Source: Paraglaciecola arctica BSs20135
GTDB taxonomy: Bacteria; Pseudomonadota; Gammaproteobacteria; Enterobacterales; Alteromonadaceae
DNA length: 40,000 nt
Reading direction: 5' to 3'
NCBI RefSeq assembly: GCF_000314995.1
Contig: NZ_BAEO01000027.1
Span: forward strand, 177,733 to 217,732
The notes below the pieces were generated by a model. It was given only the letters and a program-made list of their open reading frames with translations, was not told where the DNA came from and did not search any database. The number at the start of each line of letters is the position of its first letter. Position 1 is the stretch's first letter. Both the position numbers and the translations under genes were made by a program. Below, piece after piece: positions 6,357-38,474 of this stretch.

Positions 6357-6498
6357 TATTTTACCCCACTCTTAAAAATACTATCTTGTTAAGGCAGCTG
6401 ATCTTTACTGAATTAATTTTGTTTAAATCCAAAGTCTTTTGACCGCGGCAAGTAACAGTAAACACACGCCTAAGCTCATTAGTCCTAGTATTTGACGA

Positions 6499-7443: not shown

Positions 7444-7451
7444 AATTTAAG

Positions 7452-8258
7452 TTAAATATGCTTATTCATACCACCAGACACATCGATAGTGCTGCCTGTG
7501 GTATAAGAAGATGCTGGGGAAGCCAGATACAATAATGCTTTGGCCGGTTCTTCAGGATGACCAAATCTAGCGAGTGGAATATTTTTTTGTTTAGCTAAGT
7601 GACCAAGCCAGGTTTGGTATGATTCAGTATTCGGTTCATTTAGAAATTTGGCATGAGCATATCGTTTTTGCCATTGCCCAGACTCTATGGTGCCGAGTAA
7701 AATTGAATTTACCCGGATGCCCTTGCAGGCAAATTCTTTGGCCATACTTTGAACCAAGTTTAATAAACCCGCTCTGGCCGCTGAGGTAGCAACCATATGA
7801 GGCTCGGGTTGTAACGCCAGCAAGGAGTTAACACAAACTATCGAGGCATCTACTGAACCTTCTAATAAAGGTAGTAATGCTTGAGTTGGATAAATTACCC
7901 CAAAAAACTTTAAATTTAACTCGCTTAACCATGCTTCATCTGTGGTATCTACAAATTTTGAGACTCGGCCGCCGCCAGCGTTATTTATTAACGCATTTAT
8001 GTGACCAAAGCGTTTTTCAATCGCATTAGCAAAAGTAGCTAATTGATCTTTATCCAATACATCACAACAATGAGCTAAAATATTACTCTCAGGATATTGA
8101 CTCTCTAATTGGGTTAACGTCTCAGCTATTGTTGATTCATTACGTGCACAAAATGCCACATTTGCGCCTTCAGCTAATAATAATTTAACTGTAGCTAAAC
8201 CAATTCCTGATGTGCCACCCGTTACAACAACGGTTTTATTTTTAAGGCCTAAGTCCAT
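7452..8258 (-). CDS. Short-chain dehydrogenase/reductase (SDR)
   Basis: TGGTSGIGLA (the TGxxxGIG cofactor motif), NNAG, and a Ser...Ala-x3-Ala-type active-site region. The catalytic Tyr appears to be replaced (SAARAGL), so this may be an atypical SDR. Confidence 0.8.
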   Translation of the reverse strand: MDLGLKNKTVVVTGGTSGIGLATVKLLLAEGANVAFCARNESTIAETLTQLESQYPESNILAHCCDVLDKDQLATFANAIEKRFGHINALINNAGGGRVSKFVDTTDEAWLSELNLKFFGVIYPTQALLPLLEGSVDASIVCVNSLLALQPEPHMVATSAARAGLLNLVQSMAKEFACKGIRVNSILLGTIESGQWQKRYAHAKFLNEPNTESYQTWLGHLAKQKNIPLARFGHPEEPAKALLYLASPASSYTTGSTIDVSGGMNKHI

Positions 8259-8273
8259 GTGTTTAACTCCTCT

Positions 8274-9140
8274 TTATTGTTTAATTTTATTACCGATAAA
8301 GCTAAGCAATAAACGTTCAAAAACATTTGCTTGCTCAATATAGGCTGCATGCCCTGCATCGGGTATTTTTTGAAAAATACTCGACTGACAAACCTTTGCC
8401 ACCAAAAGTGCATTTTCTTCTGGCACCACAATATCCTCTGCGCCATATAACACTAATACTGGCTTAGTGTAGTTTTCTATATCCGCAATTAAATCAGAGG
8501 AAACTAGCAGTGACGCCGCCTGGCTATAGCCGTAATGTCTTAAGCGACGAGTATTGAATTGGACAATGTCAAAGGCTGTCTGCTGGGCGTTGGCAGAGAG
8601 TAGGCGTAACGGACTGATGTTGGCCATGCCTTCCACACCAGTTTTTTCTATATCTGCGATACGCGCATTTAGTAATTCATCGCGTATTTTTTTAGAGCTC
8701 TTACCGTATCCTAAGGCTGGGTTGACTAAAGTCAGCGATTGTATTTTATCAGGCCAACTCTTAGCAAAAGCCGCAGCAACAATGGCACCCAATGAATGAC
8801 CTACTAAATGAATTTTATCAAGTTGCAAATGAGTGATAAACAACAATAACCGTTCGGCATATGCTTGGCTTTCTGAGGGGGAATCGGCCATTAAACTGGA
8901 ATCACCATAACCAGGCGCATCCCACGCGATTAATCGGCATCCGCCAAATTTACTTTCCAATTGCTGCAGCCATGAAGCTGAACCAGAGCCAATACCGTGT
9001 AAAAAGACAATTGTTGTGGTGCTCTTAACGCCATTTTCTCGATAGGAAATAGCGATTTCCTTTTCGGTCATTAACTGTAAAGGGTATTGGGCTAATCTAG
9101 CCGTTATTTGTTGAAAACGCTCAACACTATCATTTGTCAT
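8274..9140 (-). CDS. Alpha/beta-fold hydrolase (meta-cleavage-product hydrolase-like)
   Basis: The 288-aa ORF has an HGIGSGS oxyanion region, the nucleophile elbow GHSLGA and a C-terminal DAGHAAY histidine motif. Confidence 0.8.
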   Translation of the reverse strand: MTNDSVERFQQITARLAQYPLQLMTEKEIAISYRENGVKSTTTIVFLHGIGSGSASWLQQLESKFGGCRLIAWDAPGYGDSSLMADSPSESQAYAERLLLFITHLQLDKIHLVGHSLGAIVAAAFAKSWPDKIQSLTLVNPALGYGKSSKKIRDELLNARIADIEKTGVEGMANISPLRLLSANAQQTAFDIVQFNTRRLRHYGYSQAASLLVSSDLIADIENYTKPVLVLYGAEDIVVPEENALLVAKVCQSSIFQKIPDAGHAAYIEQANVFERLLLSFIGNKIKQ

Positions 9141-9184
9141 TAATCATCTACTCATTCATTTAATAGGAATATCCACAACGCCAA

Positions 9185-9724
9185 CTAAATATCACGCTTG
9201 ATTTTTGATAGAGGGTGGTAATCAGGATAGGTAGGGATTTGGGGTTTACCAGAGCCTAACATAACAAACATTAGTGCTTCCTCTTGCCCAATATTATTTA
9301 AACCACGGTATATTCCAGCGGGAACAGAAACCAGATCTCGTTCTTTTAATATGGTGGTGTATCGTTTGTCACCATCTTCTAAAAATAACTTAATTGTTCC
9401 TTTGTAAACAAAAAATACTTCTTCTACATCATGGTGTACATGCATCGGACCTTCACAGCCTGACGGTAAACACATGGTTGAAAACGTAAAGTTTTCTGCC
9501 GCCACTACATTCATGTCAGAGCTAACACCTGCTGCCCCCGTGCCTAAGTATCTCACTTGTGCACGACGGTAAACCGGATTATAGTCGGCTTGAAATTTTA
9601 GGGCATTCCAATCATACTTTCGACTTTCAAAGCGAGCGATTCGAGATTCAATTTGTTCACCAAATCCAGCGTCAATTTCGACATTTTTAAATAACTTTTC
9701 GTTTGTTACATTGTTCTCTGTCAT
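9185..9724 (-). CDS. Cupin-domain protein
   Basis: The 179-aa ORF has cupin motif 1 (GPMHVHHDVEEVFFV) and a motif-2-like PAGIYRGLNN. Confidence 0.7.
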   Translation of the reverse strand: MTENNVTNEKLFKNVEIDAGFGEQIESRIARFESRKYDWNALKFQADYNPVYRRAQVRYLGTGAAGVSSDMNVVAAENFTFSTMCLPSGCEGPMHVHHDVEEVFFVYKGTIKLFLEDGDKRYTTILKERDLVSVPAGIYRGLNNIGQEEALMFVMLGSGKPQIPTYPDYHPLSKIKRDI

Positions 9725-9808
9725 TATTTCTTCCTCACTATTATTAGAAATTAATTGGTTATATAAAGTCCGGTAAGGTGCTAGATATTTTTAAATATCC
9801 TCAACTTA

Positions 9809-10558
9809 CTAATTCATCACGAAACCACCGTTTATGGGCAATAACTGGCCTGTGATAAAGCTAGCACTGTCTGATAGTAAGAAGTTCACTACACCAACTA
9901 CATCTTCTGGCAGTTGAGCTCTAGAAATTGCACGTCCATCTCGATACTGTTGATGACGTTCTTCAGGCACATATTCTGTCGCTTCAACTAATGTTAGCCC
10001 TGGCGCTATGGCGTTAACACAAACATTGTCGTTACCTAATTCACGTGCCATCGATTTTGTCATCGCAATAATCGCGCCCTTACTCGATACGTAGTGGAGT
10101 AATTTAGGCGCCCCCCAAAGTGCGGTATCAGAGGCCATATTGACAACTTTTGCATTGCCTGATTGACGTAAAAAAGGAGACGCTGCACGTGTCATTAGCC
10201 AGGTGCCTCGTACATTAACGTTCATGACTTTGTCCCATACGTCAATATCAATATCTTCCATTGAGACTCCGCCAATACCTGTCGCTATAGCGCCATTATT
10301 AACTAACCCATCTAGGCCACCTAGTATTTCCACTGATTGTAAAACGCACTTCTCAATGCTCTTTGGATTAGCTAAGTCTACTTTGACAAAATGAGCGTTA
10401 TAACCTGATTTTTGCAAACTGTTGGCTAGCGCAGAACCTTCATCTTCTAAAATATCGGCGATAACAATATGGGCGCCTTTCTCCACTAAGCTCATGGCGA
10501 AAGCTAGGCCTAAACCGCGTGCAGAACCCGTGACAATTACACGTTTACCTTTAAGCAT
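9809..10558 (-). CDS. Short-chain dehydrogenase/reductase (classical SDR)
   Basis: TGSARGLGLA, NNGA, the catalytic S...YVSSK (YxxxK) and a C-terminal ITGQLLPINGG. Confidence 0.88.
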   Translation of the reverse strand: MLKGKRVIVTGSARGLGLAFAMSLVEKGAHIVIADILEDEGSALANSLQKSGYNAHFVKVDLANPKSIEKCVLQSVEILGGLDGLVNNGAIATGIGGVSMEDIDIDVWDKVMNVNVRGTWLMTRAASPFLRQSGNAKVVNMASDTALWGAPKLLHYVSSKGAIIAMTKSMARELGNDNVCVNAIAPGLTLVEATEYVPEERHQQYRDGRAISRAQLPEDVVGVVNFLLSDSASFITGQLLPINGGFVMN

Positions 10559-10607
10559 TACTTACTCTTTTTAAGATAATTAATTGAATTAATCGGCATT
10601 TGCTAAG

Positions 10608-10919
10608 TTATAAATAAACATATATTTCACCCGCATCTAGCCGAATATCGTATTTAATGAGATCTCTGCCCGGTTTACGTAAACATTGACCGCTGGGGAT
10701 ATGAAACAATGCATTATGAAAAGGACATTGCACTGTTTCAATCACCGTCTTTCCTTGTGATAACAAGAAAAAGTTTTGTGCATGGGGACAAGCATCTTCT
10801 AAGGCGTAATAGTGGTCATTCAGGTGGTACAGGCCAATATATTGGCCTTCAATCTGTAATGTGAGTTTCTTATGTTCAATCAACTCAGATTCAGTTGCCA
10901 AAAATAACCAAGACGCCAT
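10608..10919 (-). CDS. Rieske-type [2Fe-2S] ferredoxin (oxygenase ferredoxin component)
   Basis: The 103-aa ORF has the ligand pattern CPH...x17...CPFH (ACPHAQNFF...VQCPFHNALF). Its size and layout resemble BphF/HcaC-type ferredoxins. Confidence 0.85.
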   Translation of the reverse strand: MASWLFLATESELIEHKKLTLQIEGQYIGLYHLNDHYYALEDACPHAQNFFLLSQGKTVIETVQCPFHNALFHIPSGQCLRKPGRDLIKYDIRLDAGEIYVYL

Positions 10920-22409: not shown

Positions 22410-24566
22410 TCAGTTTTTGTTTTTTTGCCCCTCGAGTAAATCACAAAATTCGTCGTAGGGTACAGGACGGCTAAATAAATAACCTTGTGCAATATTGCAG
22501 TTATTTAGTTTAAGAAAATCTCTTTGTAATACCGTTTCAACGCCTTCGGCAATAACTTCTAATTTTAGGCTGTGGGCCATGGCAATGACTGCAAGTATGA
22601 TGGCGCCGTCACTGTCTTGGCTATTTTCGTTGATTTCGTTGATGAATGATCTATCTATTTTTAGCCGGTCGATGGGGAGTTTTTGTAAGTAAGAAAGTGA
22701 GCTGTAGCCTGTTCCAAAGTCGTCAATTGAGACGCTCATGCCTAATTTACGAACTTCATCTAGTAAATAATAGACTTTGTCGTAGTTGTCTATTAACACT
22801 CCTTCAGTGAGTTCTAATTCCAAATGATGTGGATTAACTTGCGCCTTGGTTACACTTTCTTTAATAAACTCGAACAATTGGCGATCGTTGACTTGGCGAG
22901 GCGACAAATTGATAGACAGTTTAATTTCTTCGCCTTTTTCAGCTAATCGTTTCAAGATGGCACAGGCCTCCGTAACCACCCATTTACCAATAGGAATGAT
23001 CAATCCTGTTTGTTCAGCCAATGGGATAAACTCGTCAGGTGGGACTAAATAGCCGTTTGGATGATGCCATCTAATTAAGGCTTCTGCTTTAATAATTTTG
23101 CCGCTCGCTAAGTCCAGCATAGGTTGCAAAAATAACTCAAATTCTTGGTTTTCGACGGCACTACGGAGAGAATTTTCCATATCAATACGTTTACGAGATG
23201 CGTCGATTAGCTCTTTGGAATAAAATTCAATACTACTCACTGCTTTTTTCTTTGCAGAATAGACCGCTAGGTCGGCATATTTCATTAATTCTTCTGCGCT
23301 ATTAGTGTCTGCTGGAAACGCCGTTGCACCAACATTTAATCCAACTTCACACTTCAACCCAGAACTTAAATAAAATGGTAAACAACTAACCCTAATCAAC
23401 TCCTCAGCAAATTTTATACACTGATTTTGGTCTTGTGACGAAATATGAGTATGTAAGTGATTGAGTTGCATGATCACCGCAAACTCAGTACCACCTATCC
23501 TAGCTATCATATCATCCACATGGGTGATGGCATTAAGCCGTTTCGACAAGTCTTTTATGACTTCGTCTCCTACAACGTGGCCATGTAATTCATTGATGCG
23601 TTTGAATTGTTTAATATCGATATACAATAGATAAAACGGACGGTTTTGCTGGATTTTGCTTTCAAGCTGTTGCCAAAAATACTGCCTATTGGGTAAATTT
23701 GTTAGTGCATCAAAATGAGTTAGTTTTTCGTTACGTTTAAGTAGGTATTTTACCTGAGTCACATCGCTAACACTAAATAACCAATTCTGAACTCTTTGCT
23801 CATCGTTTTTAATTGGATGAATAGATAATTTAAGCCACTTGCCCTGTTGTGGAGGATTTAACCAGTAAATTTCGCCGGTCCACGAACTTGCGGTAGAGAA
23901 AATACGCTCGCATTCGGGATATTGGGTTCTGAACAGTTCTAGTAACAATTTGTCTGGAGGTAGACCGATTTTTATATTTGTATCATCAAATAGCGTTCGC
24001 AACGCTGGATTGCTATTTAATAAGTGTAAATCAGCATCAAGTATTGCTACTGCTAAATCTGTTTGTGTTAATGCTTGAGCAATGGGTTGCTGCGCAGTTA
24101 GTGTTCGATTGGGCTGGCTAAGTAACTCTTCTAAGCGTGAGTGCAGATAGTCGTGTTGAGCAGATATTTTGTCGCTCGATAATAACAACTCACGTGCAAT
24201 TTGTAGGGTTTGTTGTTTTTGTCTATATTTTGCTTCTAGTTTACTGACGATTAAATAATTTTGCTTGTTAGCGACAACAGCCGAGGCTTCCAAGCGGACC
24301 AACTGAGTCGATAATTGTTCTGACCACAAACCAGATTCAATACGGCCATTTTTATTTGCTTGCCAAAGGTTTTCGGCGTCAATTAAAAAGTCTTCTAAAT
24401 AGGCTGAGTTTTGTGCAAAACAAAATACTTTGGTATCCACTATTTCTGGCAGTAATTCATCCAGCCAATTTCCTGCTCTATATAACACTTCAAATTTTGC
24501 GGAAGATAGCCGCCTAAATACAACACAATCTAATAAACCTAAAGCTGTAAGTAGTGAAGCGTCCAT
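22410..24566 (-). CDS. Multidomain c-di-GMP protein: N-terminal unknown domain, coiled coil, PAS-like, degenerate GGDEF (GGTEF), intact EAL; predicted phosphodiesterase
   Basis: The GGDEF-domain blocks are present (DALTNLPNR, YIDIKQFKRINELHGH), but the signature reads GGTEF (nt 23481-23495) and the RxxD I-site is absent. The EAL domain has EALIRW (23076-23084), DDFGTGYSSL, KIDRSF, EGVE and QGY. Confidence 0.9.
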   Translation of the reverse strand: MDASLLTALGLLDCVVFRRLSSAKFEVLYRAGNWLDELLPEIVDTKVFCFAQNSAYLEDFLIDAENLWQANKNGRIESGLWSEQLSTQLVRLEASAVVANKQNYLIVSKLEAKYRQKQQTLQIARELLLSSDKISAQHDYLHSRLEELLSQPNRTLTAQQPIAQALTQTDLAVAILDADLHLLNSNPALRTLFDDTNIKIGLPPDKLLLELFRTQYPECERIFSTASSWTGEIYWLNPPQQGKWLKLSIHPIKNDEQRVQNWLFSVSDVTQVKYLLKRNEKLTHFDALTNLPNRQYFWQQLESKIQQNRPFYLLYIDIKQFKRINELHGHVVGDEVIKDLSKRLNAITHVDDMIARIGGTEFAVIMQLNHLHTHISSQDQNQCIKFAEELIRVSCLPFYLSSGLKCEVGLNVGATAFPADTNSAEELMKYADLAVYSAKKKAVSSIEFYSKELIDASRKRIDMENSLRSAVENQEFELFLQPMLDLASGKIIKAEALIRWHHPNGYLVPPDEFIPLAEQTGLIIPIGKWVVTEACAILKRLAEKGEEIKLSINLSPRQVNDRQLFEFIKESVTKAQVNPHHLELELTEGVLIDNYDKVYYLLDEVRKLGMSVSIDDFGTGYSSLSYLQKLPIDRLKIDRSFINEINENSQDSDGAIILAVIAMAHSLKLEVIAEGVETVLQRDFLKLNNCNIAQGYLFSRPVPYDEFCDLLEGQKNKN

Positions 24567-24574
24567 GCGATCCT

Positions 24575-25066
24575 CTATTCAGTTAATATGTTAGCAAGAT
24601 GGGAAAACATGGCTTCAACACCATCGCCAGTTTTAGCGCTAGTATTAAAAAAACCATTAAAATTTTGTTTTATCTCGTTTACTTCCGCTACACTCCAGTG
24701 CCAACTTGCGGCTAAATCTGACTTGTTAACAGCCAATACCCCAGGAATGTCAGCCACTTCTTTAACCATTTTGAATATATCTAATCCTTCCACTAATGAT
24801 TGTGAACGTGTGTGGTCGGTTACAATAATAAAAGCCGATGCACCGCGTAAATATTTAGCTTGGAAACCACAGTAGCGATCAATGCCTTCAATGTCCCATA
24901 TCATTAATTGCACTGGGTGTTTGGCTGTTTCAATTTGTTTCTTGTCAATCTTTACGCCGATAGAAGTCAGATACTTTTCCGAGAAAATACCTTCTACGTA
25001 TTGTTTGACCAAGCTAGTTTTACCTACACCTGATGCACCTAACATGCATATTTTCTTCTGGATCAT
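24575..25066 (-). CDS. Ras-superfamily small GTPase (Rab/Roc/MglA-like, prokaryotic)
   Basis: The 163-aa ORF has G1 GASGVGKTS, switch-I YLTSIGV, G3 WDIEG, G4 NKSD and G5 TSAKTG. The SD of the downstream gene overlaps its stop codon. Confidence 0.88.
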   Translation of the reverse strand: MIQKKICMLGASGVGKTSLVKQYVEGIFSEKYLTSIGVKIDKKQIETAKHPVQLMIWDIEGIDRYCGFQAKYLRGASAFIIVTDHTRSQSLVEGLDIFKMVKEVADIPGVLAVNKSDLAASWHWSVAEVNEIKQNFNGFFNTSAKTGDGVEAMFSHLANILTE

Positions 25067-25137
25067 GGTTGTCCTAATTGTTTCATGCTAATTTACTCAT
25101 TCATTTCGCCAACAGAATACGTCTTAAGGCCTGGGTT

Positions 25138-26901
25138 CTAACCACCTTCAAAATATACGACGTTAAACAGCACTTTCCGTGCACCTTCTTTGGTTGTTTT
25201 TAATTTTATAACGCCTAAACCGATAGCGTTTAAGCGGTTAGCCGCGACACCTAGATCCTGTAGTTTTAACTTGACTACGTCAGCACGTTTTTGACTCAAA
25301 ATTTTATTAAAAGATGCAGTGCCGACTGTATCGCTTGCGCCCATAATAATTAAACCTAGTGACAATTCTTGTTGTTCGGCTATTTCAATTAAATTATTAA
25401 ATTGCTCTTTAATGTCTATTAATTTTTCTAAATCCAGTTCAGACAAGTCACTTTTTCCAGGTTCAAATGAAATGGAAACCCGATCTATTTTTGCAATGTT
25501 TAAATCTAAAATAGCCCTAATCAACTCAGGATCATTGGCGGCTGTATTTTCTGTCCCTTCGATAATCAAATCGTCTAACAAAGTTGCCTGAAAATTGAGC
25601 CCCACCAGTTTTGCTAATTCTGCCTGTAAAAGCAATTTGTTTAAATTAGTGGATTTACCCTTAAATTTTGGAGAATTATCAACCCAGTCGATAGTGACAT
25701 TAGAGTAACGTGCAACAACAAGTTCGGTTTTATGTTTTATTAGCGATGGATCAAGGGATAAATAGGCTCTTTCTTTGAGTATCACTCGACTACTATCAAT
25801 CGACTGTTGTTCAAGCCATTCTTGAACTGATAGAGCCGCTGGGTCACGTAATACCTCAAGCTGTATTTGCTCTAGGCCTAAAGTGTCTATATTGGTAAGT
25901 AGAATACCGGGTGCTTTATCAATCGCACTTACTTGGTTCATCAGTTCATGTGACTGCCAACGTTTTACGAGTAAAAAACCGCAACCTATTAGGACCAATA
26001 AAACCACAGTCAACGCCATCCAAGGGCGTTTATCGGTGTTTGATTCAGGTTTTAGTACAGTCATCAGGCAGTCTCTTAACTGATGCTCACTATTATTAAA
26101 TGGTATTGAATCACCATTAAAATTGTCTAGCTCTTTATCGTATAGCTTGTGGATTTCTTCTAATGTCTGTTGCAGTTGATTCGCTACGCCCTGAGGCATA
26201 TTGCCGGTAATCGCCGCCACTACTGACGCTTTAGGGCCTTTTTTTAACAATAAAGTAAAATCATCAGTACGTACCACATCGAGATTCTGCTCAATTTTAC
26301 CCGAATTGGAAGTAAAGGAATCTGATACAAAATCGTTTATGGCCGTAAGCATAGACGAGACCATGTCTGCATCTGCTTTGAGCTCCAAACCCAAGGAAAC
26401 TGAATTTAATAAAAGCCCTGTTTCACGATGAATCAAAAAGACCTGTTCTACTCGAAAAGCAAAAGTTTGGCTAGCCGCGTATTGGGAAAATGTTACCCCA
26501 GATTGCCATGCTTTAAATCGCCATGAGAGGCCTTTAAGAGTTAGACTGTTTTCGATTAGTGTGTTGGTTTTTTCTAATAGTTCAGTAATAAATGCAGTAA
26601 CGTATTTTCTAACTAGGCTACCTATTAACGGATATAAATAACCAACAAACCTTTCACTATTAGCCTCAATTGATTTTTCAACTGATTTTTCAACTAGTGG
26701 TAAAAGTACTTTGTTCACCGAGCCATCTTGTCTTTCTCGGTCGTGTAATGCTTCAGAAAATACTTCTGAGACTAATTCTCGGGCATTGTCTTTTATAGTT
26801 TTGGTTACATGCTGTCCATTGCTACCCAATACCAATTCGCGGATTTGGCGCATTTGTTGGGTATCAGGTTTATTGGGTTGCTGCTCGTTTGAGTGTGCCA
26901 T
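25138..26901 (-). CDS. Bitopic envelope protein: cytoplasmic N-domain with Roadblock/LC7-like segment, one TM helix, periplasmic OmpA/MotB-type peptidoglycan-binding C-domain
   Basis: The 587-aa ORF has a TM helix at residues 293-312 (PWMALTVVLLVLIGCGFLLV, nt 25966-26025). The C-terminal OmpA-like domain spans residues ~472-585 (ISFEPGKSDLS...GASDTVG...NKILSQKRADVV...NRLNAIGLG). The Roadblock-like call for residues 147-253 is based on pattern only. Confidence 0.8.
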   Translation of the reverse strand: MAHSNEQQPNKPDTQQMRQIRELVLGSNGQHVTKTIKDNARELVSEVFSEALHDRERQDGSVNKVLLPLVEKSVEKSIEANSERFVGYLYPLIGSLVRKYVTAFITELLEKTNTLIENSLTLKGLSWRFKAWQSGVTFSQYAASQTFAFRVEQVFLIHRETGLLLNSVSLGLELKADADMVSSMLTAINDFVSDSFTSNSGKIEQNLDVVRTDDFTLLLKKGPKASVVAAITGNMPQGVANQLQQTLEEIHKLYDKELDNFNGDSIPFNNSEHQLRDCLMTVLKPESNTDKRPWMALTVVLLVLIGCGFLLVKRWQSHELMNQVSAIDKAPGILLTNIDTLGLEQIQLEVLRDPAALSVQEWLEQQSIDSSRVILKERAYLSLDPSLIKHKTELVVARYSNVTIDWVDNSPKFKGKSTNLNKLLLQAELAKLVGLNFQATLLDDLIIEGTENTAANDPELIRAILDLNIAKIDRVSISFEPGKSDLSELDLEKLIDIKEQFNNLIEIAEQQELSLGLIIMGASDTVGTASFNKILSQKRADVVKLKLQDLGVAANRLNAIGLGVIKLKTTKEGARKVLFNVVYFEGG

Positions 26902-26909
26902 TTTTCAGG

Positions 26910-27464
26910 CTACTCACCTTCATCTGTTGCAAGATCACTCGCCACTGTGGCCAGTAATTTAGCTAAGGTTTTACGATCCGTTTTAGATGAATTTAGCTCG
27001 CTAGACATTTGTGTGAGTTTTTCCAATGCCTGATTCAGCTGCTCGGTGAATTTCACCGTTAAGGTTTGAATTTCTTTGTCTAAGCGATTGTGTAAATCGT
27101 CATTTTCTTGTTTGCTGTTTGCTTCGGCCATTTCAAGCTCAGATGAAATTTTGTCAGCATAGCTATTTAATTCAGCTGTTTTTGCATCTTGGCCTTGATC
27201 GGCAATCGCAAGCTTATCTTCTAGTTGATTGAGGCCCTCGCGCATAGTGGCTTGTATACTTTGGGTGTTTTTTTCTATTGCTAGCTGCATTTTTTTAAAA
27301 CTGTCATCAGTATGCTGCTCTAACGCACTAATTCGTTCTTCTATATCACTTTTGGCCGCACCAAAAACAAGATGTCTTAAGCTTTCCAGCTCAGTTAAGG
27401 CTACTGATTCTGTAGTCGAAGGGGGTTGATTATTTGTGGTTGGAGCGTTTTTTTTATCAGCCAT
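26910..27464 (-). CDS. Coiled-coil protein (184 aa), first gene of the GTPase operon
   Basis: It has a low-complexity N-terminus followed by continuous heptad-rich helical sequence (IEERISALEQ..., LNQLEDKLAIADQ..., LDKEIQTLTVKFTEQLNQALEKLTQM). It has no TM segment or signal peptide. There is an 8-nt gap to the next gene. Confidence 0.7.
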   Translation of the reverse strand: MADKKNAPTTNNQPPSTTESVALTELESLRHLVFGAAKSDIEERISALEQHTDDSFKKMQLAIEKNTQSIQATMREGLNQLEDKLAIADQGQDAKTAELNSYADKISSELEMAEANSKQENDDLHNRLDKEIQTLTVKFTEQLNQALEKLTQMSSELNSSKTDRKTLAKLLATVASDLATDEGE

Positions 27465-27661
27465 GATGCAAATCCTCTGCTCAAATAATTTTTTTCAAAA
27501 AATGAAAACGATTTATAATGCACCGATTTATATAAAAATTAAACAGTTTACAAGCATTTAGCATGAAAAATGTGGTTAGCTTAGTGAGCTAAACTGACGA
27601 ATATATTGATTTTTACTAACACTAGTCCAAAATAGCGCCTTTGGCGTAACTAATTCCTACA

Positions 27662-27687
27662 TAGTAAATATTCATCCTTATTTACTA
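27662..27687. promoter_or_regulatory. 9-bp perfect inverted repeat just upstream of hemH
   Basis: TAGTAAATA (27662-27670), an 8-nt spacer and TATTTACTA (27679-27687). It ends 25 nt before the hemH ATG. Confidence 0.3.
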
Positions 27688-27712
27688 TCAACAACATCAC
27701 CAAGAGTTTTTC

Positions 27713-31320: not shown

Positions 31321-31929
31321 ATGAAAATATATGACACCAAAACAGCCCCCTCGCCAAGACGGGTTCGCATTTTTTTAGCTGAAAAAAATATTCCAATGGA
31401 ATATGTGCAAGTGGATCTACAAAAAGGTGAAAATATATCACCTCAAATGCGCGCTAAAAATCCAGTGGGTAAAATACCTGTTCTTGAACTAGACGATGGT
31501 ACTTGTATTAGTGAAGGTGCATCGATTTGTTTATATTTTGAAGAGTTATATCCAGAAATTAATCTATTGGGTAAAAATCCCCTAGAAAAAGCAACAATAG
31601 ACATGTGGCATCGGCAGGTTGAGCTGTACTTTTTTGGTCAGGTAGGTATGTGTTTTCAACATACAACTGGTTATTTTAAAGATCGTATGACACCGGTTAA
31701 AGAATACGGTGAAGTGGCGGGTAAAAACGCACTTGGCTTTCTTAAAGTGTTAGAAAGCCGTTTAGCAGAGTCAGAGTATATCGCCGCTGATCGCTTCACT
31801 ATAGCCGACATTACAGCTATGTGTGCAGTCGATTTTGCTCGAGTCGTCAATATTAAAATCACTGATGAGCAGACTAATCTGCAACGTTGGTATGCTGCTG
31901 TGAGTAGTCGCCCAAGTGCAAAGGCTTAA
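31321..31929 (+). CDS. Glutathione S-transferase
   Basis: It has an N-terminal thioredoxin-like GST fold (MKIYDTKTAPSPRRVRIFLAEKNI...NPVGKIPVLELDDG..ISEGASI) and a C-terminal alpha domain. I prefer the ATG at 31321 over the ORF-track start at 31282. Confidence 0.85.
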   Translation: MKIYDTKTAPSPRRVRIFLAEKNIPMEYVQVDLQKGENISPQMRAKNPVGKIPVLELDDGTCISEGASICLYFEELYPEINLLGKNPLEKATIDMWHRQVELYFFGQVGMCFQHTTGYFKDRMTPVKEYGEVAGKNALGFLKVLESRLAESEYIAADRFTIADITAMCAVDFARVVNIKITDEQTNLQRWYAAVSSRPSAKA

Positions 31930-32819
31930 TCTCGCCATCTTTTTGTGATGTCATCATAAGCATCGATTCTTCGGTCTCTAAAATACGGCCAGATACGTTT
32001 GATTTGTTCTGTGCGGCTAAGATCGATGTCGACAACTAAGTTTTCTTCTTTATCACTACTAGCTTGGGCGAGTATTTCGCCTTGTGGTCCAGCAATAAAA
32101 CTTTGCCCCCAAAACTGAATGCCTGCATCACCTGCTACTGGTGATGCCTCAAAACCTGTGCGGTTTGCGACTACCACTGGTAATGAATTAGCCACCGCAT
32201 GCGAGCGTTGTATGGTTTGCCATGCATCATGCTGGCGTGTTTGTTCTTCTGCAGTGTCGTTTTTGTCCCAGCCAATTGCAGTGGGATAAAACAACATTTC
32301 TGCACCTGCCATCGCCATCAACCTTGCTGCTTCTGGATACCATTGATCCCAGCATACCAACACCCCAAGTTTACCTACGCTGGTTTGAATCGGTTCAAAA
32401 CCTAGATCACCAGGCGTAAAATAAAACTTTTCGTAAAAACCTGGGTCATCGGGAATATGCATTTTACGATATTTGCCGACTAAACCTTGTTGGCGGTCAA
32501 ACACTACTGCAGTATTGTGATACAAACCCGAGCCACGTTTTTCAAATAATGAGGTGATAAGGACTATGTCTAATTTGGCGGCAAGAGCAGCAAAATAATC
32601 AGTGGCTGCACCAGGTATAGGTTCTGCCAAGTCGAAATAATCAGTGTTTTCTTGCTGGCAAAAATACAAGGTACTGTGCAACTCCTGTAGCATCACTAGC
32701 TCGCAACCCTGCGAAGCTAAAACGCTGACTTGTTCGGCACTGCGCGCCCAGTTCACATCTTTATCATTACTGGCAACGGCTTGTTGTACCACGCCGACTT
32801 TTAAACTACTTTTCTTCAT
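31926..32819 (-). CDS. aguB: N-carbamoylputrescine amidase (C-N hydrolase family)
   Basis: The diagnostic blocks are YRKMHIPDDPGFYEKFYFTPGDLGF, VCWDQWYPEAARLMA, YPTAIGW and WPYFRDRRIDAYD. I prefer the start MKKSSLKVGVVQQ at 32819, which gives a 14-nt overlap with aguA. The ORF-track start at 32909 would run 104 nt into aguA. Confidence 0.92.
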   Translation of the reverse strand: MKKSSLKVGVVQQAVASNDKDVNWARSAEQVSVLASQGCELVMLQELHSTLYFCQQENTDYFDLAEPIPGAATDYFAALAAKLDIVLITSLFEKRGSGLYHNTAVVFDRQQGLVGKYRKMHIPDDPGFYEKFYFTPGDLGFEPIQTSVGKLGVLVCWDQWYPEAARLMAMAGAEMLFYPTAIGWDKNDTAEEQTRQHDAWQTIQRSHAVANSLPVVVANRTGFEASPVAGDAGIQFWGQSFIAGPQGEILAQASSDKEENLVVDIDLSRTEQIKRIWPYFRDRRIDAYDDITKRWRD

Positions 32820-33873
32820 AGACACGGACTCCATTGGCGAAGGATTGCAAAATTTCTGGTTTAAGTATGCCACAAGGTATTTGCATACTAATACAATGCA
32901 AGCTACCAAACTGTTGAACTAATGGCAGGCAATTTATCGGCACTATAGTAAATTCTGGGTAGGCTGTTTGCATTATTTGCATAGCTAACTTATCTTCTGG
33001 TTGTTGATAAATAGGGCACAGAATATGTTGGTTAGAAATCAAAAAATTGGCATAGGAAGCAGGAAGTCTGTCGCCATGTGAATTAACTATCTGTGGTAAC
33101 GGTAATTCAAATATTTGGTGAGTGGGTAACACTTGCTGACATTCTTTAACTAAGGCGGCTAACCCAATAAAATGGCTGTCTTCTGGGCGATTAAAAGCCG
33201 ATTGAATAACCAGACCATTATCTGGCGTAAAACGTACTAAGGTATCAATATGCCCGTCAGTATCGTCACCTTCTAGATGCCCATTTTGTAAAATAATACT
33301 TTGTTTAGCGCCCAGAAAATTCTGAAAGACTTGCTGATATTCTGCAATAGACTTATTACCATTTCGTTTAGGATTAGTCAGGCAAAGTTCGGTAGATAAC
33401 AAAGTGCCATATTGATCAATTTCTAATGCCCCACCTTCCACTACTAAATCAACTGATTTAATTGCTTGCTGACATAGTTGGCTGAGTACATCTTGATTAA
33501 TCTTATTGTCTTTAGCTGCATCAAATTTTTGTCCCCAACCATTAAAAGCAAATTCGATTGGTTGCAAAGCTGATTCATTTGCACAGCTTAAAAAGCCGTA
33601 GTCTCTTATCCAAGTATCATTGTAATCAGCTTTGACTACTAATATTTGCGCTGATTTATTTAGTTTGTTCAAACAATTTTTGATTTCGCTACTGCGTACT
33701 AACAACACAACATTAGTTTTAGCTTGGTTGAGTGATTCAATGATCTTTAGATAAACGTTTTGCACGTCATCAAGCCAAGGCTTCCAATCGGTATGTTGAT
33801 CCGGCCATACCAGCATAACGGCGTCTTGTTGAGTCCACTCGGGTAACAGTTGGTAATTGTCAGTCATGCACAT
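32806..33873 (-). CDS. aguA: Agmatine deiminase
   Basis: The 355-aa ORF has PEWTQQDAVMLVWP, TWIRDYG, LEGDDTDGHIDTLVRF and a C-terminal catalytic-Cys block (GSLHCISMQ). Confidence 0.9.
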   Translation of the reverse strand: MCMTDNYQLLPEWTQQDAVMLVWPDQHTDWKPWLDDVQNVYLKIIESLNQAKTNVVLLVRSSEIKNCLNKLNKSAQILVVKADYNDTWIRDYGFLSCANESALQPIEFAFNGWGQKFDAAKDNKINQDVLSQLCQQAIKSVDLVVEGGALEIDQYGTLLSTELCLTNPKRNGNKSIAEYQQVFQNFLGAKQSIILQNGHLEGDDTDGHIDTLVRFTPDNGLVIQSAFNRPEDSHFIGLAALVKECQQVLPTHQIFELPLPQIVNSHGDRLPASYANFLISNQHILCPIYQQPEDKLAMQIMQTAYPEFTIVPINCLPLVQQFGSLHCISMQIPCGILKPEILQSFANGVRVYEEK

Positions 33874-34841: not shown

Positions 34842-35278
34842 GTTCTACTGTCATTACGTTTTTGACAGGCGGCTGCAACTAGTTGGTTGAAAGTTGCTGC
34901 ATATTGATACAATTGTTTACGTAAACGTAATTCGTCTTCTGACCTCAATGCATCACTACTATCGGCCATTAGTCTGTAACCACATTGTTGTTGAAGTGTG
35001 GATGATCCCTCGTTAATGCCAGGAAAAGTGGTGACTCTGCCTGCAAAAGCCAATAAAGTGAAATCTTGTTTTTCAATAGCGAAATTGGCATCGGCTTTAG
35101 GATCTGCATAGGGTAGCCACTTGATAATAGCGGTTTGGCTAAGCTCAATATCCTGTTTTTGATTATCTTGAGTTACCTCAGATGTTTGAGATAAAAAAGA
35201 TGAATTGGTTTGACTACAACCAAGAGATAAACAACTTATCGCAGCGATAAACATTAAAGGGGATATACGGTTATTCAT
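34832..35278 (-). CDS. Lipoprotein of unknown function, translationally coupled to the upstream metalloprotease gene
   Basis: It has a signal peptide with a lipobox (ISCLSLG-C-SQ). Its ATG (35276-35278) overlaps the protease stop (35271-35273) by 8 nt in total. Confidence 0.7.
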   Translation of the reverse strand: MNNRISPLMFIAAISCLSLGCSQTNSSFLSQTSEVTQDNQKQDIELSQTAIIKWLPYADPKADANFAIEKQDFTLLAFAGRVTTFPGINEGSSTLQQQCGYRLMADSSDALRSEDELRLRKQLYQYAATFNQLVAAACQKRNDSRTSP

Positions 35279-38200
35279 AACGGCCCTTATTAATTGATTG
35301 ATATAGCTTTACAGAAAAACAAAGAAAAGACAAAAAACTTAACAGTAACATACTCCCCCCGCCAGAATCACCTGAGTCCCCTGAAACTACAGGAACCGAA
35401 TTAACTTGAACATTCAGGCTAGCTTCGTCTGTTAATGTGCCGTCTGATATAACATAGATTATAGATTCGTTGCCTGTAAACCCGGCTGCTGGAGTATAAG
35501 TTAATTGTTGATTTAATACTGCTACCTGTCCTTCACCAGTATAGCTAAATGATGTGATACTGAGCTCATCTAGATCCACATCAGTATCGTTACTTAATAC
35601 GTTAATAACCGTAGTATCACTATTTTGTTGGATCGAAGCTGTATCGTCATTAGCAATGGGGGCGTCATTGAGTGCTGTTACTTGCACCTGAAATGTTAAT
35701 ACGTTGCTATCTAATTCACCATCGTTCACGAACACCATTGCGTTTAAGGTGCCATTAAAGTTAGCGTTAGGTGTAAGTGTTTGTTCACTTACACTATAGT
35801 TTTCTCCGTTTTGGATTGTCAGGGAGAAGTCTCCTGGATAGTCGGAATCAGGGTCAATTACTTTTATATCAGTAAAATCAAATTGCCGTTGTGAGTCTTC
35901 GTTGATACTCAAAATATCCAGACTGTCGGAGCTAGCTATAGGCGCGTCATTGACTGCCACTACTAGTACTTGAAGTATCAATAGGTTGCTGTCCAATTCT
36001 CCGTCATTAACAACCACCTTCACAGCTAAGACTCCATTAAAATTGGTATCAGGTGTCAGAGTTTGTTGATCAATACTGTAGTTATCGCCGTCTTGGATTG
36101 TCAGAGTAAAGTCTTCTGGATAGGCTGAGTCAGGATCAACAATAGTTAAATCGCTAAAATCAATGATCCGCTGTGAGTCTTCGTTAAGGCTTATGCTGGA
36201 CTGATTATTTACTGTCACAACAGGAGCATCATTAACTGCTAAAACTTGTACTTGAAGGGTAAATACGTTGCTGTCCAATCCCCCATCATTAACGGTTACT
36301 GGCACTGTTAAGGTGCCATAAAAGTCGGCATCAGGCGTCAAAATTTGTTGATTTACAGTATAGTTGTTGCCTTCTTGGATCGTCAGGGTGAAGTCTTGTG
36401 GATAGGCCGAGTCGGGATCAGTTACATTTAAATCAGCAAGATCAATTTGTCGCTGTGAATCTTCGTTAAGGCTAATAACATTCTGACTATTTATTAAGGG
36501 GGCAACTGGGTCAAGGTCAATAATAGCAAAGGTTTGGTCGCTGACAGCGTAAAAGACGTTGTCGCTACATCTTAAGACCAGTCTTGCTGCTGCACTGCTA
36601 ATATTAGGTGCTCTAACGATTTGCTGCCCGTCATTGGGCGTTTTTAAAAGTACTGTGGTTTCTATAGGATTATTGACATCAGCAATAACTAAAATATCCA
36701 CATTGGCACAGTTGATGGGGGCTGTGAGTGTATCCCCCATATTCCAAGTCACTGCTTGCTCAAAAAGTGCCTGCCATTCATTTGGTGTAGCAATACTGAA
36801 CGTTTGGCTAGTGTTGGCCACAGTAATGACTACATCTTGTTGGTTTACGCCGCCATTGTTGTCTCTAGCGGTCAACCTAAAGCGCATATCCCTGTCGGTA
36901 GTGGCATAAGTTTCGCCTTTGGTGGTTTGGCCTCTAAGCACGTCACTTAACTTAGGAAAGTAACGTTGTGCTATACCTACTGGGCTAAAAGAACGAAAAA
37001 GTGGGTTGCTGCCATTATCGATATTCATTTCGGCAAGGCTACTCGTTGCTCCTAAAGTCCCTCCATTGTCAAACTGTTCCCAAGTGAAGCTAAGGAAGTC
37101 GTTATTAGCATCAGTTGCAGTAGCGCTTAACACAAAAGGCGTGGCAGCCGGGATTGTATAAGCATTTTGTGGCAACTGAATTTTTGGGATGGCGTTTTCA
37201 ATTTCAACCTCAACACCACAGCGTCGTCCAGAGAAACTTTCAACATAGGTACGGATTTCTTGAATTGATATTGAATGAAAATAAGGGTCGCTATCATCTT
37301 GTATATTTTGTGAGCCACAAATACCTGCATAAGACATAATAGTGGAGCCGCTGCCGGGTTCGAATGCAGAGTCAATGGAGCGTCCATTTTGCTCACAATT
37401 AGAAGAATTAGTCGCATTAAAAGTATGTCCTGCTCCCAATTGATGCCCTAATTCATGGGCGACCAAATCAATATAAAATCGTTCACCCTGAGGATTGTCT
37501 AAGCCTGTATAGCCTTGGGCTTTGAATTGGCTGTTACATACCACTCCTACGTAAGCTAACCCGCCACCATTTGTGCCTAATACATGGCCAATATCATAGT
37601 TTTGATTACCTATAGCTTGGTCAACAACACTCTGATTTTCTTCAATATCAGTGGCTGCATCAGTATTAGTGTATGGGTCAGTGGCTGCATCAAAAAAGAT
37701 TATGTCTTGGTTATCAACCAATTCAAATTGTATTGCTAAATCAACTAACACAACCTGATTGATGCGGTTAACCAAATTCATTAATTCCGCTATAACGTTT
37801 TGGGTTGTTCCTCCTAACTTTTGGGTGTATTCACCTGTTGTACTAATGGCCAGCGAATAAGTACGTACTTTATCGCCAGTGGTGACTAACTTTTGGGCTA
37901 ATTCAGGCCCTGCTATCTGTTCTTCAGCTAGTAAAAAATCAGCTGTAAGTGTGGCTTTTTCTGACTTGGAAGGCGCATCTTTGTACCAATAACTCGCATA
38001 TTCAATTGCCTCACCTTGATACCTCGGCGATAACAACATCCACTGGTTGTTGTACCGAAAAAAACCAAACAAGCCTAGATGAGAAATACTAAACCGTCCT
38101 ATATTTTGGGGTTGGTCAACCTGCTGAGCTTGATAGGCCATAAAGTTAGGGTATTGTTTGGCCAAATCTTCACTTAAAATGGGGGAAGGACTCAATTTGA

Positions 38201-38474
38201 CAGTTATACTCAAGCCGTTAGGAAGAGGAACAGTGATTTCAGTGGCTAAATTTAGATTAGAGAACTTGTTGGTCAATAAAGATTGGTTTATCTGTATGTA
38301 CCTAGCTTTGTCAGCCAAAACACGTAGGGGTTTGATGTGTTCTGATTTAGCGAGGGGAGACTTTTCTTGCCATAAGGTTTCGCCTTGAATAGAAAAATTG
38401 ATAAAACTGAGGGTTAATAACAAAAAAAACTGACGAATAATTATGCCCATTGCTGGGGTCACTAAAGTTTGCAT
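35271..38474 (-). CDS. Secreted reprolysin-like (metzincin) zinc metalloprotease with tandem cadherin/VCBS-like repeats and a GlyGly-CTERM-type sorting tail
   Basis: It has an N-terminal signal peptide, the zinc motif HELGHQLGAGH (nt 37425-37457), the Met-turn STIMSY, three 94-aa repeats plus a fourth related domain, and the C-terminus SGDSGGGSMLLLSFLSFLCFSVKLYQSINKGRYE. Confidence 0.85.
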   Translation of the reverse strand: MQTLVTPAMGIIIRQFFLLLTLSFINFSIQGETLWQEKSPLAKSEHIKPLRVLADKARYIQINQSLLTNKFSNLNLATEITVPLPNGLSITVKLSPSPILSEDLAKQYPNFMAYQAQQVDQPQNIGRFSISHLGLFGFFRYNNQWMLLSPRYQGEAIEYASYWYKDAPSKSEKATLTADFLLAEEQIAGPELAQKLVTTGDKVRTYSLAISTTGEYTQKLGGTTQNVIAELMNLVNRINQVVLVDLAIQFELVDNQDIIFFDAATDPYTNTDAATDIEENQSVVDQAIGNQNYDIGHVLGTNGGGLAYVGVVCNSQFKAQGYTGLDNPQGERFYIDLVAHELGHQLGAGHTFNATNSSNCEQNGRSIDSAFEPGSGSTIMSYAGICGSQNIQDDSDPYFHSISIQEIRTYVESFSGRRCGVEVEIENAIPKIQLPQNAYTIPAATPFVLSATATDANNDFLSFTWEQFDNGGTLGATSSLAEMNIDNGSNPLFRSFSPVGIAQRYFPKLSDVLRGQTTKGETYATTDRDMRFRLTARDNNGGVNQQDVVITVANTSQTFSIATPNEWQALFEQAVTWNMGDTLTAPINCANVDILVIADVNNPIETTVLLKTPNDGQQIVRAPNISSAAARLVLRCSDNVFYAVSDQTFAIIDLDPVAPLINSQNVISLNEDSQRQIDLADLNVTDPDSAYPQDFTLTIQEGNNYTVNQQILTPDADFYGTLTVPVTVNDGGLDSNVFTLQVQVLAVNDAPVVTVNNQSSISLNEDSQRIIDFSDLTIVDPDSAYPEDFTLTIQDGDNYSIDQQTLTPDTNFNGVLAVKVVVNDGELDSNLLILQVLVVAVNDAPIASSDSLDILSINEDSQRQFDFTDIKVIDPDSDYPGDFSLTIQNGENYSVSEQTLTPNANFNGTLNAMVFVNDGELDSNVLTFQVQVTALNDAPIANDDTASIQQNSDTTVINVLSNDTDVDLDELSITSFSYTGEGQVAVLNQQLTYTPAAGFTGNESIIYVISDGTLTDEASLNVQVNSVPVVSGDSGDSGGGSMLLLSFLSFLCFSVKLYQSINKGRYE
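35655..36500 (-). repeat. Three in-frame tandem copies of a 282-bp (94-aa) unit inside the protease gene
   Basis: The anchor string CG(C/T)TGTGA recurs at 36451, 36169 and 35887, exactly 282 nt apart. The peptide units start ISLNEDSQRQIDLADL / ISLNEDSQRIIDFSDL / LSINEDSQRQFDFTDI. The outer boundaries are approximate. Confidence 0.8.

Follow-up and report, generated by a model that had tools for sequence, protein, structure and literature searches.

The Rup family of prokaryotic Ras-like GTPases was defined by comparative genomics (Wuichet and Sogaard-Andersen, Genome Biol Evol 2015; PMC4316618), and its Group 1 members come with a characteristic gene neighborhood: a coiled-coil gene (DUFY), a gene whose DUFX domain is often followed by a transmembrane (TM) helix and an OmpA peptidoglycan-binding domain, the Rup GTPase gene, and a signal-output gene (PMC4316618). 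Output proteins are usually either histidine kinases or fusions of a diguanylate cyclase with a phosphodiesterase, and they have an invariant Gln in their N-terminal region (PMC4316618). Group 1 GTPases are without the glutamine of the G3 motif, and the authors speculate that this residue is supplied in trans (PMC4316618). They also compared the system to the actinobacterial conservon, and in their phylogeny the GTPases belong to Rup and fall outside MglA (PMC4316618). Here we describe a chromosomal copy of the Group 1 Rup small-GTPase signaling module, encoded by four minus-strand genes in a 40,000-nucleotide (nt) stretch of the Paraglaciecola arctica BSs20135 genome (contig NZ_BAEO01000027.1, positions 177,733 to 217,732; hereafter the window, in whose numbering coordinates are given).

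All four components of the described neighborhood were found here, in the same order and in the same bacterial family as published members, and there is no essential difference between the two. The GTPase is a single-domain member of the Ras superfamily with eukaryote-like G1 to G5 motifs, and the catalytic Gln that should follow the DxxG of G3 is missing (present in 0 of 76 aligned sequences, which comprise the GTPases adjoining DUFX homologs in 75 loci plus that of the window). The adjoining coiled-coil DUFY gene lies 8 nt upstream of the DUFX gene, whose product has both the TM helix and the OmpA domain, and the output gene begins 8 nt downstream of the GTPase gene and encodes a conserved N-terminal Gln (Q122). 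The arrangement "DUFY>OmpA:DUFX>Rup>" is given in Table S2 of the 2015 paper for Glaciecola sp. 4H-3-7+YE-5, G. nitratireducens, Marinomonas mediterranea, Alteromonas, and Pseudoalteromonas (now Paraglaciecola) atlantica T6c, with members such as Glaag_0299, Patl_3989, GNIT_3134, and Marime_1218 (PMC4316618). Since that paper describes this neighborhood and lists Alteromonadales among its members, the kind of system is already known, and the proposal of an initial annotation of this DNA that the operon represents an undescribed switch has to be given up. Its companion statement, that no gammaproteobacterial system of this architecture has been characterized, agrees with the literature searched, in which subscription journals are thinly covered; nor did that literature yield, after 2014, any follow-up on Group 1 Rup or any experimental study of a member.

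To the published account of Group 1 Rup our analysis adds a longin/Roadblock-like fold predicted for DUFX and a PAS-like fold with a long helix predicted for the output protein. It further adds an Arg (Arg125) beside the output Gln and a Ras-Gly12 equivalent that is never Gly, where the 2015 paper noted the missing Gln only. Outputs of the HD-GYP, nucleotidyl cyclase, and Ser/Thr kinase types, rare variants without a GTPase gene, and occurrence in Acidobacteriota and Gemmatimonadota also extend what was known.

Gene order and its conservation

The list of open reading frames (ORFs) reproduced exactly the four minus-strand ORFs of the initial annotation, with spacers of 8, 71, and 8 nt. Ribosome-binding sites precede each start in the junction sequences; that of the output gene (TAGAGGAtcgcATG) overlaps the GTPase stop codon, as had been noted, and the 71-nt gap between the DUFX gene and the GTPase gene includes AGGAcaaccATG. 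This tight gene spacing suggests translational coupling. No terminator-like hairpin was found inside the four-gene cluster on the coding (minus) strand, and a weak sigma-70-like match lies at 27629-27600 on the minus strand, in the intergenic region between DUFY and hemH. The reading of the four genes as one operon-like unit is supported, and the unit is a widely conserved one. The divergent hemH gene, which starts at 27713, is the divergent neighbor in close Paraglaciecola relatives as well, which argues for a chromosomal core locus, and the base composition of the region is unremarkable.

The DUFX N-domain family is without a Pfam model and gave 260 matches in a word-indexed homolog search. 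Its profile matched at least 586 stretches in GTDB species-representative genomes, and 80 loci were kept. In 75 to 76 of these 80 loci, which range from Gammaproteobacteria to a cyanobacterium, a codirectional GTPase gene comes directly after the DUFX gene; clustering of the genes is therefore far beyond chance, given that the same order is kept across several phyla. An upstream ORF of ~155 to 350 amino acids (aa) occupies the place of DUFY in 73 to 79 of 80 loci, where the count by hidden Markov model is partly circular, the model having been built from those ORFs; with the window DUFY alone as query, tblastn recovered an ORF immediately 5′ of the DUFX gene in 35 of 80. The window-type output N-domain is encoded in 54 of the 80 loci, and in most of these its gene follows the GTPase gene. 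The gammaproteobacterial loci belong to Alteromonadaceae, Colwelliaceae, Marinomonas, Hahella, Kangiellaceae, and Oleiphilaceae, as well as Thiotrichales, while the other taxa are Acidobacteriota, Gemmatimonadota, Binatia, Mariprofundaceae, and one member of the cyanobacterial family Pseudanabaenaceae. The same four genes are found in P. chathamensis, Marinomonas, and Glaciecola loci, and the nearest relatives of the window module are those of Paraglaciecola species.

Two loci from Thiotrichales or uncultured gammaproteobacteria (L033:4816-9085 and L036, ~6357-10621) carry the coiled-coil gene, the DUFX-TM-OmpA gene, and then a gene encoding the output N-domain with GGDEF and EAL domains, with no GTPase gene in between. 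They are either a GTPase-less variant or have their GTPase encoded elsewhere. The EAL loop of L033 reads DRFGDR instead of DDFGTG.

The GTPase, its wall-anchored partner, and the output protein

The window GTPase matches Pfam Ras (E = 1.5e-29), and its nearest solved structures in the PDB are Rab23, Rab27A, and Sec4. Homologs in Paraglaciecola mesophila and P. agarilytica share 67 to 68% identity with it and are 167 aa long, a length shared by Glaag_0299 and Patl_3989 of Group 1 Rup. The complete set of G1 to G5 motifs reported by the initial annotation was found (GASGVGKT, T34, DIEG, NKSD, and SAK), but two substitutions within it had been overlooked: G3 reads D58-I-E-G-I62, which puts Ile62 at the position of Ras Gln61, and Ser12 stands at the position of Ras Gly12. 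Across the 76 aligned GTPases, the Ras-61 position is Glu in 30, Ile in 13, Ala in 9, Val in 8, Arg in 5, Asn in 4, Lys in 3, Thr in 2, and Ser and Asp in 1 each, and the Ras-12 position is Phe in 48, Ser in 17, Thr in 6, Tyr in 4, Ala in 1, and never Gly. G1, the G2 Thr, DxxG, NKxD, and SAK are nearly invariant in the same alignment, with the G3 Asp kept in 75 of 76. Substitutions at Ras-12 and Ras-61 render eukaryotic GTPases hydrolysis-deficient, and the combination of a missing Gly12 and a missing Gln61 is seen in Rnd, RhoH, and similar eukaryotic GTPases that are deficient in hydrolysis. Having neither Gln at Ras-61 nor Gly at Ras-12, the Rup GTPase looks unable to hydrolyze GTP efficiently alone.

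The MglA/MglB systems of Myxococcus, Thermus, and Bdellovibrio likewise consist of a small Ras-superfamily GTPase and a Roadblock-fold regulator, and the Bdellovibrio MglA network touches a degenerate-GGDEF receptor of cyclic di-GMP (c-di-GMP), a pairing of GTPase and degenerate-GGDEF protein also seen here. However, MglA itself carries both a catalytic Gln and a catalytic Arg, of which the Rab-like Rup GTPase is without the Gln, and the G3 motif of MglA is TxxGQ, with Thr in place of Asp, where the window GTPase has D58 and no Gln behind it.

The 587-aa DUFX protein had been described as having one TM helix and an OmpA-type domain, and Pfam, hydropathy, and motif all bear this out. The OmpA match scores above the gathering threshold (E = 9e-9), and the peptidoglycan-binding motif GASDTVGTASFNKILSQKRA lies at residue 521 (pattern G-x-[ST]-D..G....N..LS..RA). 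The TM helix is the top 19-residue Kyte-Doolittle window of the protein (2.67), and no comparable hydrophobic segment was found in the other three proteins. The DUFY protein produced coiled-coil-type Pfam matches that are all sub-threshold. In the periplasmic stretch of the DUFX protein (residues 318-587; 25138-25950), the part between TM helix and OmpA is conserved in homologs (consensus GhVV...GxY.l.GLRDPLA.DP) and has no Pfam match; it is a candidate input domain.

Structure prediction and Foldseek searches, which the initial annotation had recommended, gave a longin/Roadblock fold for DUFX. In an AlphaFold2 (AF2) model built from 41 homologs, with a mean predicted local distance difference test (pLDDT) score of 75 (81-97 in the strands and C-terminal helices and 63-71 in alpha2), long helices at 14-134 precede an alpha-beta unit. 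Between residues 138 and 253 this unit runs alpha (138-146), beta (147-158), beta (164-169), alpha (178-196), beta (209-211), beta (216-221), beta (225-233), and alpha (237-253), followed by more helices up to 276. Foldseek matches of the model in the PDB were almost only of the longin/Roadblock class (E from 6e-5 to 3e-3; target-normalized TM-scores of 0.4-0.7). On the longin/adaptor side they include the AP-complex sigma subunit, TRAPP Bet5/Trs23, Mon1-Ccz1, and Fuzzy-Inturned, and on the Roadblock side LAMTOR2, MP1/p14, Asgard Roadblocks, the Streptomyces Roadblock/LC7 protein 3kye, and MglB (3t12_C). The top matches are longin-type subunits of guanine nucleotide exchange factors (GEFs) and adaptor complexes rather than MglB. 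Since the unit combines the N-terminal helix typical of Roadblock with the C-terminal helices typical of longin, we call it longin/Roadblock-like, and the model supports assignment of residues ~138-276 to this class at the level of fold. The Roadblock-like domain that had been proposed at residues 147-253 is thus upheld as a predicted fold (138-253), but not as a sequence-profile relative of Robl_LC7: neither Robl_LC7 nor longin is among the most frequent Pfam families of 41 family members, even at E up to 5, and Robl_LC7 is not among the matches listed for the window DUFX. In the DUFX domain V151, Q153, H158, R159, D190, and D194 are invariant or nearly so, as are R98 and R128.

Comparison with MglB and other Roadblock proteins leads to the same distinction, in that DUFX shares the predicted alpha-beta-beta-alpha-beta-beta-beta fold but shows no sequence-level similarity to MglB/Robl_LC7. 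Furthermore, MglB is a small soluble dimer, whereas the DUFX domain shares one polypeptide with a TM helix and an OmpA domain. Eukaryotic longin/Roadblock regulators (TRAPP, Mon1-Ccz1, Fuzzy-Inturned/CPLANE, Ragulator, FLCN-FNIP, and GATOR1) are of the same partner fold class and are membrane-anchored platforms that set the nucleotide state of their GTPases, and the GTPase here is Rab-like in sequence. Fuzzy-Inturned is the GEF of Rab23, the top PDB match of the window GTPase. However, sequence homology between these regulators and DUFX is not detectable; the eukaryotic platforms are hetero-oligomeric assemblies of multiple longin domains on organelle membranes, whereas the bacterial domain is, as far as known, single and is anchored to peptidoglycan.

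The PAS region, GGTEF motif, and intact EAL domain reported earlier for the 718-aa output protein agree with its Pfam matches (PAS_4, GGDEF, and EAL) and with a motif scan. GGTEF at aa 358-362 (23493-23507) stands for GGDEF and no RxxD I-site was found upstream of it, while the EAL signatures are all present (EALIR at 495, SINLS at 551, ELTE at 585, DDFGTGYSS at 615, LKID at 635, EGVE at 674, and AQGY at 693). From these residues, the EAL domain looks like an active c-di-GMP phosphodiesterase and the GGDEF domain looks inactive. In its C-terminal 550 residues the protein resembles Caulobacter PdeA (CC3396), Escherichia coli DosP, and DibA-like proteins of Pseudomonas, which combine an intact EAL domain with an inactive-looking GGDEF domain, and DibA is its top NCBIfam similarity at 405 bits, far under the 980-bit cutoff; unlike them, it has an additional, system-specific PAS-like N-domain that is genetically tied to a GTPase. 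Among the orthologs in loci L001-L031, degenerate forms of GGDEF (GGTEF, GGAEF, GGNEF, or GGGEF) are confined to Paraglaciecola, Aliiglaciecola, and Marinomonas, and the motif is canonical in Colwellia, Thalassotalea, Hahella, Oleiphilaceae, and some others; loss of cyclase capacity is therefore lineage specific.

The N terminus of the output protein, unassigned in the initial annotation, can be assigned by structure prediction. An AF2 model of the first 165 residues (34 sequences; pLDDT 84) has a beta-beta-alpha-alpha-alpha-beta-beta-beta core and, behind it, a helix spanning residues 112-150, and Foldseek matched it to LOV/PAS domains with J-alpha helices and to LOV-histidine kinase chimeras (8a52, 7yx0, and 4gcz; E from 2e-4 to 3e-3). 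According to the model, the N terminus is a divergent PAS-like domain feeding a signaling helix, at the start of which lie Q122 and R125. These two residues are conserved in 97% and 94%, respectively, of 189 aligned output N-domains and both in >90% of 150 representatives; W34, F60, W68, S78, W81, E83, A94, and A96 are conserved as well.

A word-indexed homolog search with the output N-domain found 2 partial proteins only, while an exhaustive representative search gave a family of 471 representatives at 50% identity. The domains behind the N-domain in the 90 longer representatives are HATPase_c (61), GGDEF (18), EAL (16), HD_5 (HD-GYP type; 5), and a Ser/Thr kinase (1), and the outputs in the examined loci are GGDEF-EAL, HD-GYP, hybrid histidine kinase, and nucleotidyl cyclase. 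Such exchange of the output behind a constant N-domain argues for an input domain that would receive the module's signal. In a search for fusions of the GTPase to the N-domain, no Ras was among the families listed for the 90 representatives; N-terminal extensions of ~140 residues, considered as possible Ras fusions, were rejected, the extension being a second, distantly related PAS-like domain. In some histidine kinases a different N-domain ("type B") precedes the window-type PAS-like domain in tandem. In Pyrinomonadaceae the gene 3′ of the GTPase gene encodes a 292-aa protein with a type B N-domain and a PAS domain and no enzymatic output (L025:9133-10011; similar genes in L028, L030, L032, L040, L043, L046, L054, and L067; proteins P0288-P0387). 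An hhalign comparison of the window-type N-domain with that of the 292-aa proteins aligned the helix only, at a probability of 12%.

A possible mechanism and its alternatives

We consider the chances somewhat better than even that the locus is a Group 1 Rup module in which wall-anchored DUFX acts on the GTPase and the GTPase acts on the EAL protein via the PAS-like domain, and we infer the protein-protein contacts, the direction of regulation, and the input signal as follows. The DUFX protein would sit in the inner membrane, held to the peptidoglycan by its OmpA-like domain, with the longin/Roadblock-type domain facing the cytoplasm. There the latter domain would directly regulate the nucleotide state of the GTPase, most likely as a recruiter or exchange factor like the eukaryotic longin/Roadblock platforms, with action as a GTPase-activating protein (GAP) like MglB being a close alternative. 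The GTPase, probably unable to hydrolyze GTP efficiently by itself, would in its GTP-bound state bind the PAS-like N-domain of the output enzyme, and the signal would run down the long helix to the PAS, degenerate GGDEF, and EAL domains and alter c-di-GMP hydrolysis. Gln122 and Arg125 may complete the GTPase active site in trans, in which case the effector would also turn the GTPase off. The coiled-coil DUFY protein would be the scaffold of the complex, and the input may be the state of the peptidoglycan or envelope, sensed by the periplasmic region 318-587. The combination of a conserved, tightly packed four-gene unit with a swappable catalytic end suggests the PAS-like domain as the entry point of the module's signal.

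Several observations weigh against this scheme. The longin/Roadblock assignment of DUFX is purely at the level of fold, with query-normalized TM-scores of about 0.2-0.33 that are low because of the long N-terminal helices; alpha2 of the model is of only moderate pLDDT, and the DUFX family profile matched PDB sequences at noise level only (E = 0.2). With Q153, R159, R128, and R98 of DUFX all nearly invariant, the source of a residue supplied in trans is ambiguous, and the helix with Q122 and R125 may be a plain PAS-J-alpha signaling junction instead of a catalytic element. The substitution of both Ras-12 and Ras-61 resembles non-cycling GTPases. Finally, the downstream gene of Pyrinomonadaceae bears a different N-domain, and the L033 and L036 loci carry the module without a GTPase gene.

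In a rival scheme the roles are swapped: DUFX would act on the GTPase as a GAP, in the way that MglB acts on MglA, while the PAS-like N-domain would be a pure effector and nucleotide exchange would be spontaneous or driven by another factor, possibly the coiled-coil protein. Among bacterial Roadblock proteins, only MglB is known as a partner of a small GTPase on biochemical grounds, and it acts as a GAP; it is among the fold matches of DUFX (3t12_C), and R98, R128, Q153, H158, or R159 of DUFX could supply catalytic residues. However, MglB gives no catalytic residue to its GTPase, yet the GTPase here is without its own Gln, and an arginine finger should be impeded by the Phe, Ser, Thr, or Tyr that stands in for Ras Gly12. 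The best fold matches, moreover, lie with the longin-type GEF and adaptor subunits, and it was the invariant Gln of the output protein, 97% conserved here, that the 2015 paper singled out (PMC4316618). We therefore regard swapped roles as possible but on balance unlikely.

The preferred scheme also has a stronger form, which we regard as rather doubtful: that DUFX is a true bacterial longin/Roadblock exchange factor for a Rab-like GTPase, anchored to the wall, with the PAS-like domain supplying the catalytic Gln and Arg in trans. If this were so, the module would inform second-messenger enzymes about the condition of the envelope or peptidoglycan, c-di-GMP signaling would gain a class of input not demonstrated before, and the pairing of a Rab with a longin platform and an effector that doubles as GAP would be widespread in bacteria (at least 586 matches).

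Alternatively, the GTPase may not cycle at all and, like Rnd or RhoH, may stay GTP bound as a nucleotide-dependent adaptor that tethers the output enzyme to a peptidoglycan-anchored DUFX/DUFY scaffold, so that control would be spatial (the site of c-di-GMP degradation) or through abundance, with no timed switch. A Ras-12 position that is never Gly and a Ras-61 position that is never Gln in 76 orthologs are as expected of such a protein, and a wall-anchored partner and a coiled-coil protein would fit a scaffold. Nevertheless, G1 to G5 are otherwise strictly conserved, and a partner of the longin/Roadblock type, like an effector with a conserved Gln/Arg pair, would be expected of a regulated cycle, which makes a non-cycling GTPase improbable in our judgment.

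Less probable again is that the EAL protein is a mere neighbor with its own PAS-sensed signal while the GTPase, DUFX, and DUFY act elsewhere, for example, in the envelope or in polarity. The protein does have a second, ordinary PAS domain at 167-272, and a gene with the output N-domain was detected in 54 of the 80 loci rather than in all. However, this N-domain is a dedicated family that adjoins these GTPases in the examined loci and is fused to many outputs, and the 8-nt gap with its overlap of Shine-Dalgarno sequence and stop codon, along with a gene order kept across phyla, speaks for a functional tie.

Conservons (CvnA-D; Mfp in Mycobacterium) are also thought to be self-contained signaling units, and the initial annotation called this module conservon-like, an analogy that the 2015 authors draw too (PMC4316618). 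As an analogy this holds, but membership in the Cvn or MglA/MglB families does not. The input of a conservon is a histidine kinase in the membrane, which works with CvnC (DUF742), a GTPase of MglA group 2, and CvnB as a Roadblock protein in its own right. In the module described here the membrane protein is no kinase, and the enzymatic protein resides in the cytoplasm and has the look of an output. Although a small GTPase, a Roadblock-like partner, and a signaling enzyme share one operon here as there, membership in the MglA/MglB polarity module or the actinobacterial Cvn family is hardly credible and was rejected on the defining features: G3 has Asp and not the Thr typical of MglA, the top relatives are Rabs and not MglA, Pfam found neither Robl_LC7 nor DUF742 nor a CvnA-type membrane histidine kinase (or any other histidine kinase) in the window operon, and the 2015 phylogeny has these GTPases in Rup (PMC4316618).

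The value of the locus lies in a well-defined test case with specific residues, not in a new discovery. The module is widespread, spans several phyla, and connects a Rab/Ras GTPase of eukaryote-like type with outputs in c-di-GMP, two-component, and cyclic-nucleotide signaling, and the copy of this marine gammaproteobacterium, with an EAL output that can be assayed, is a convenient entry to what bacterial Rup GTPases do. It poses the questions of how a GTPase without Gln61 and Gly12 gets switched off and whether the partnership of longin/Roadblock proteins with GTPases is older than eukaryotes.

Feature coordinates and neighboring genes

Table 1. Features of the Group 1 Rup locus in the window (aa, residues of the respective protein)
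Feature	Coordinates	Strand	Basis
DUFY gene, 184 aa, soluble coiled-coil protein, first in module	26910..27464	minus	ORF list
DUFX-TM-OmpA gene, 587 aa, bitopic, cytoplasmic N-domain and periplasmic linker	25138..26901	minus	ORF list, Pfam
Longin/Roadblock-like domain of DUFX (predicted), aa 138-276, cytoplasmic	26074..26490	minus	AF2 and Foldseek
Transmembrane helix, single, aa 294-312, WMALTVVLLVLIGCGFLLV	25966..26022	minus	Kyte-Doolittle
OmpA-like peptidoglycan-binding domain, aa 479-572	25186..25467	minus	Pfam OmpA
Group 1 Rup small GTPase gene, 163 aa	24575..25066	minus	ORF list, Pfam Ras
Output protein gene, 718 aa, PAS-like/helix/PAS/GGTEF/intact EAL	22410..24566	minus	ORF list, Pfam
PAS-like N-domain (predicted), aa 1-110, and long helix, aa 112-150, with Q122 and R125	24117..24566	minus	AF2, Foldseek
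PAS_4 domain of output protein	aa 167-272	minus	Pfam
Degenerate GGDEF domain, aa 284-441, GGTEF at 358	23244..23717	minus	Pfam, E = 4.8e-33
EAL phosphodiesterase domain, aa 465-701	22464..23174	minus	Pfam, E = 2.7e-73
Intergenic region between DUFY gene and divergent hemH, presumed operon promoter region	27465..27712	.	ORF list

The features of the locus are collected in Table 1. Downstream of the module, a convergent gene for an IclR-type regulator ends at 22335. Rfam families gave no match, and hence no riboswitch, in or upstream of the operon. PADLOC defense profiles gave only weak coiled-coil matches of the 184-aa DUFY protein to ZorA tails and none for the other three proteins.

Elsewhere in the window, a gene at 1455-2645 on the plus strand, adjoining a gene for an outer-membrane efflux protein, encodes a 396-aa hydroxymethylglutaryl coenzyme A reductase (Pfam E = 3.5e-122), an enzyme that is uncommon in Gammaproteobacteria. 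At 35271-38474 on the minus strand lies a gene for a 1,067-aa reprolysin-like (M12B) metalloprotease with C-terminal cadherin-like/Big_9 domains. Two long minus-strand ORFs at 31926-32909 and 32806-33873 overlap by 104 nt, and the TTG start of the downstream ORF of this pair was probably called too early.

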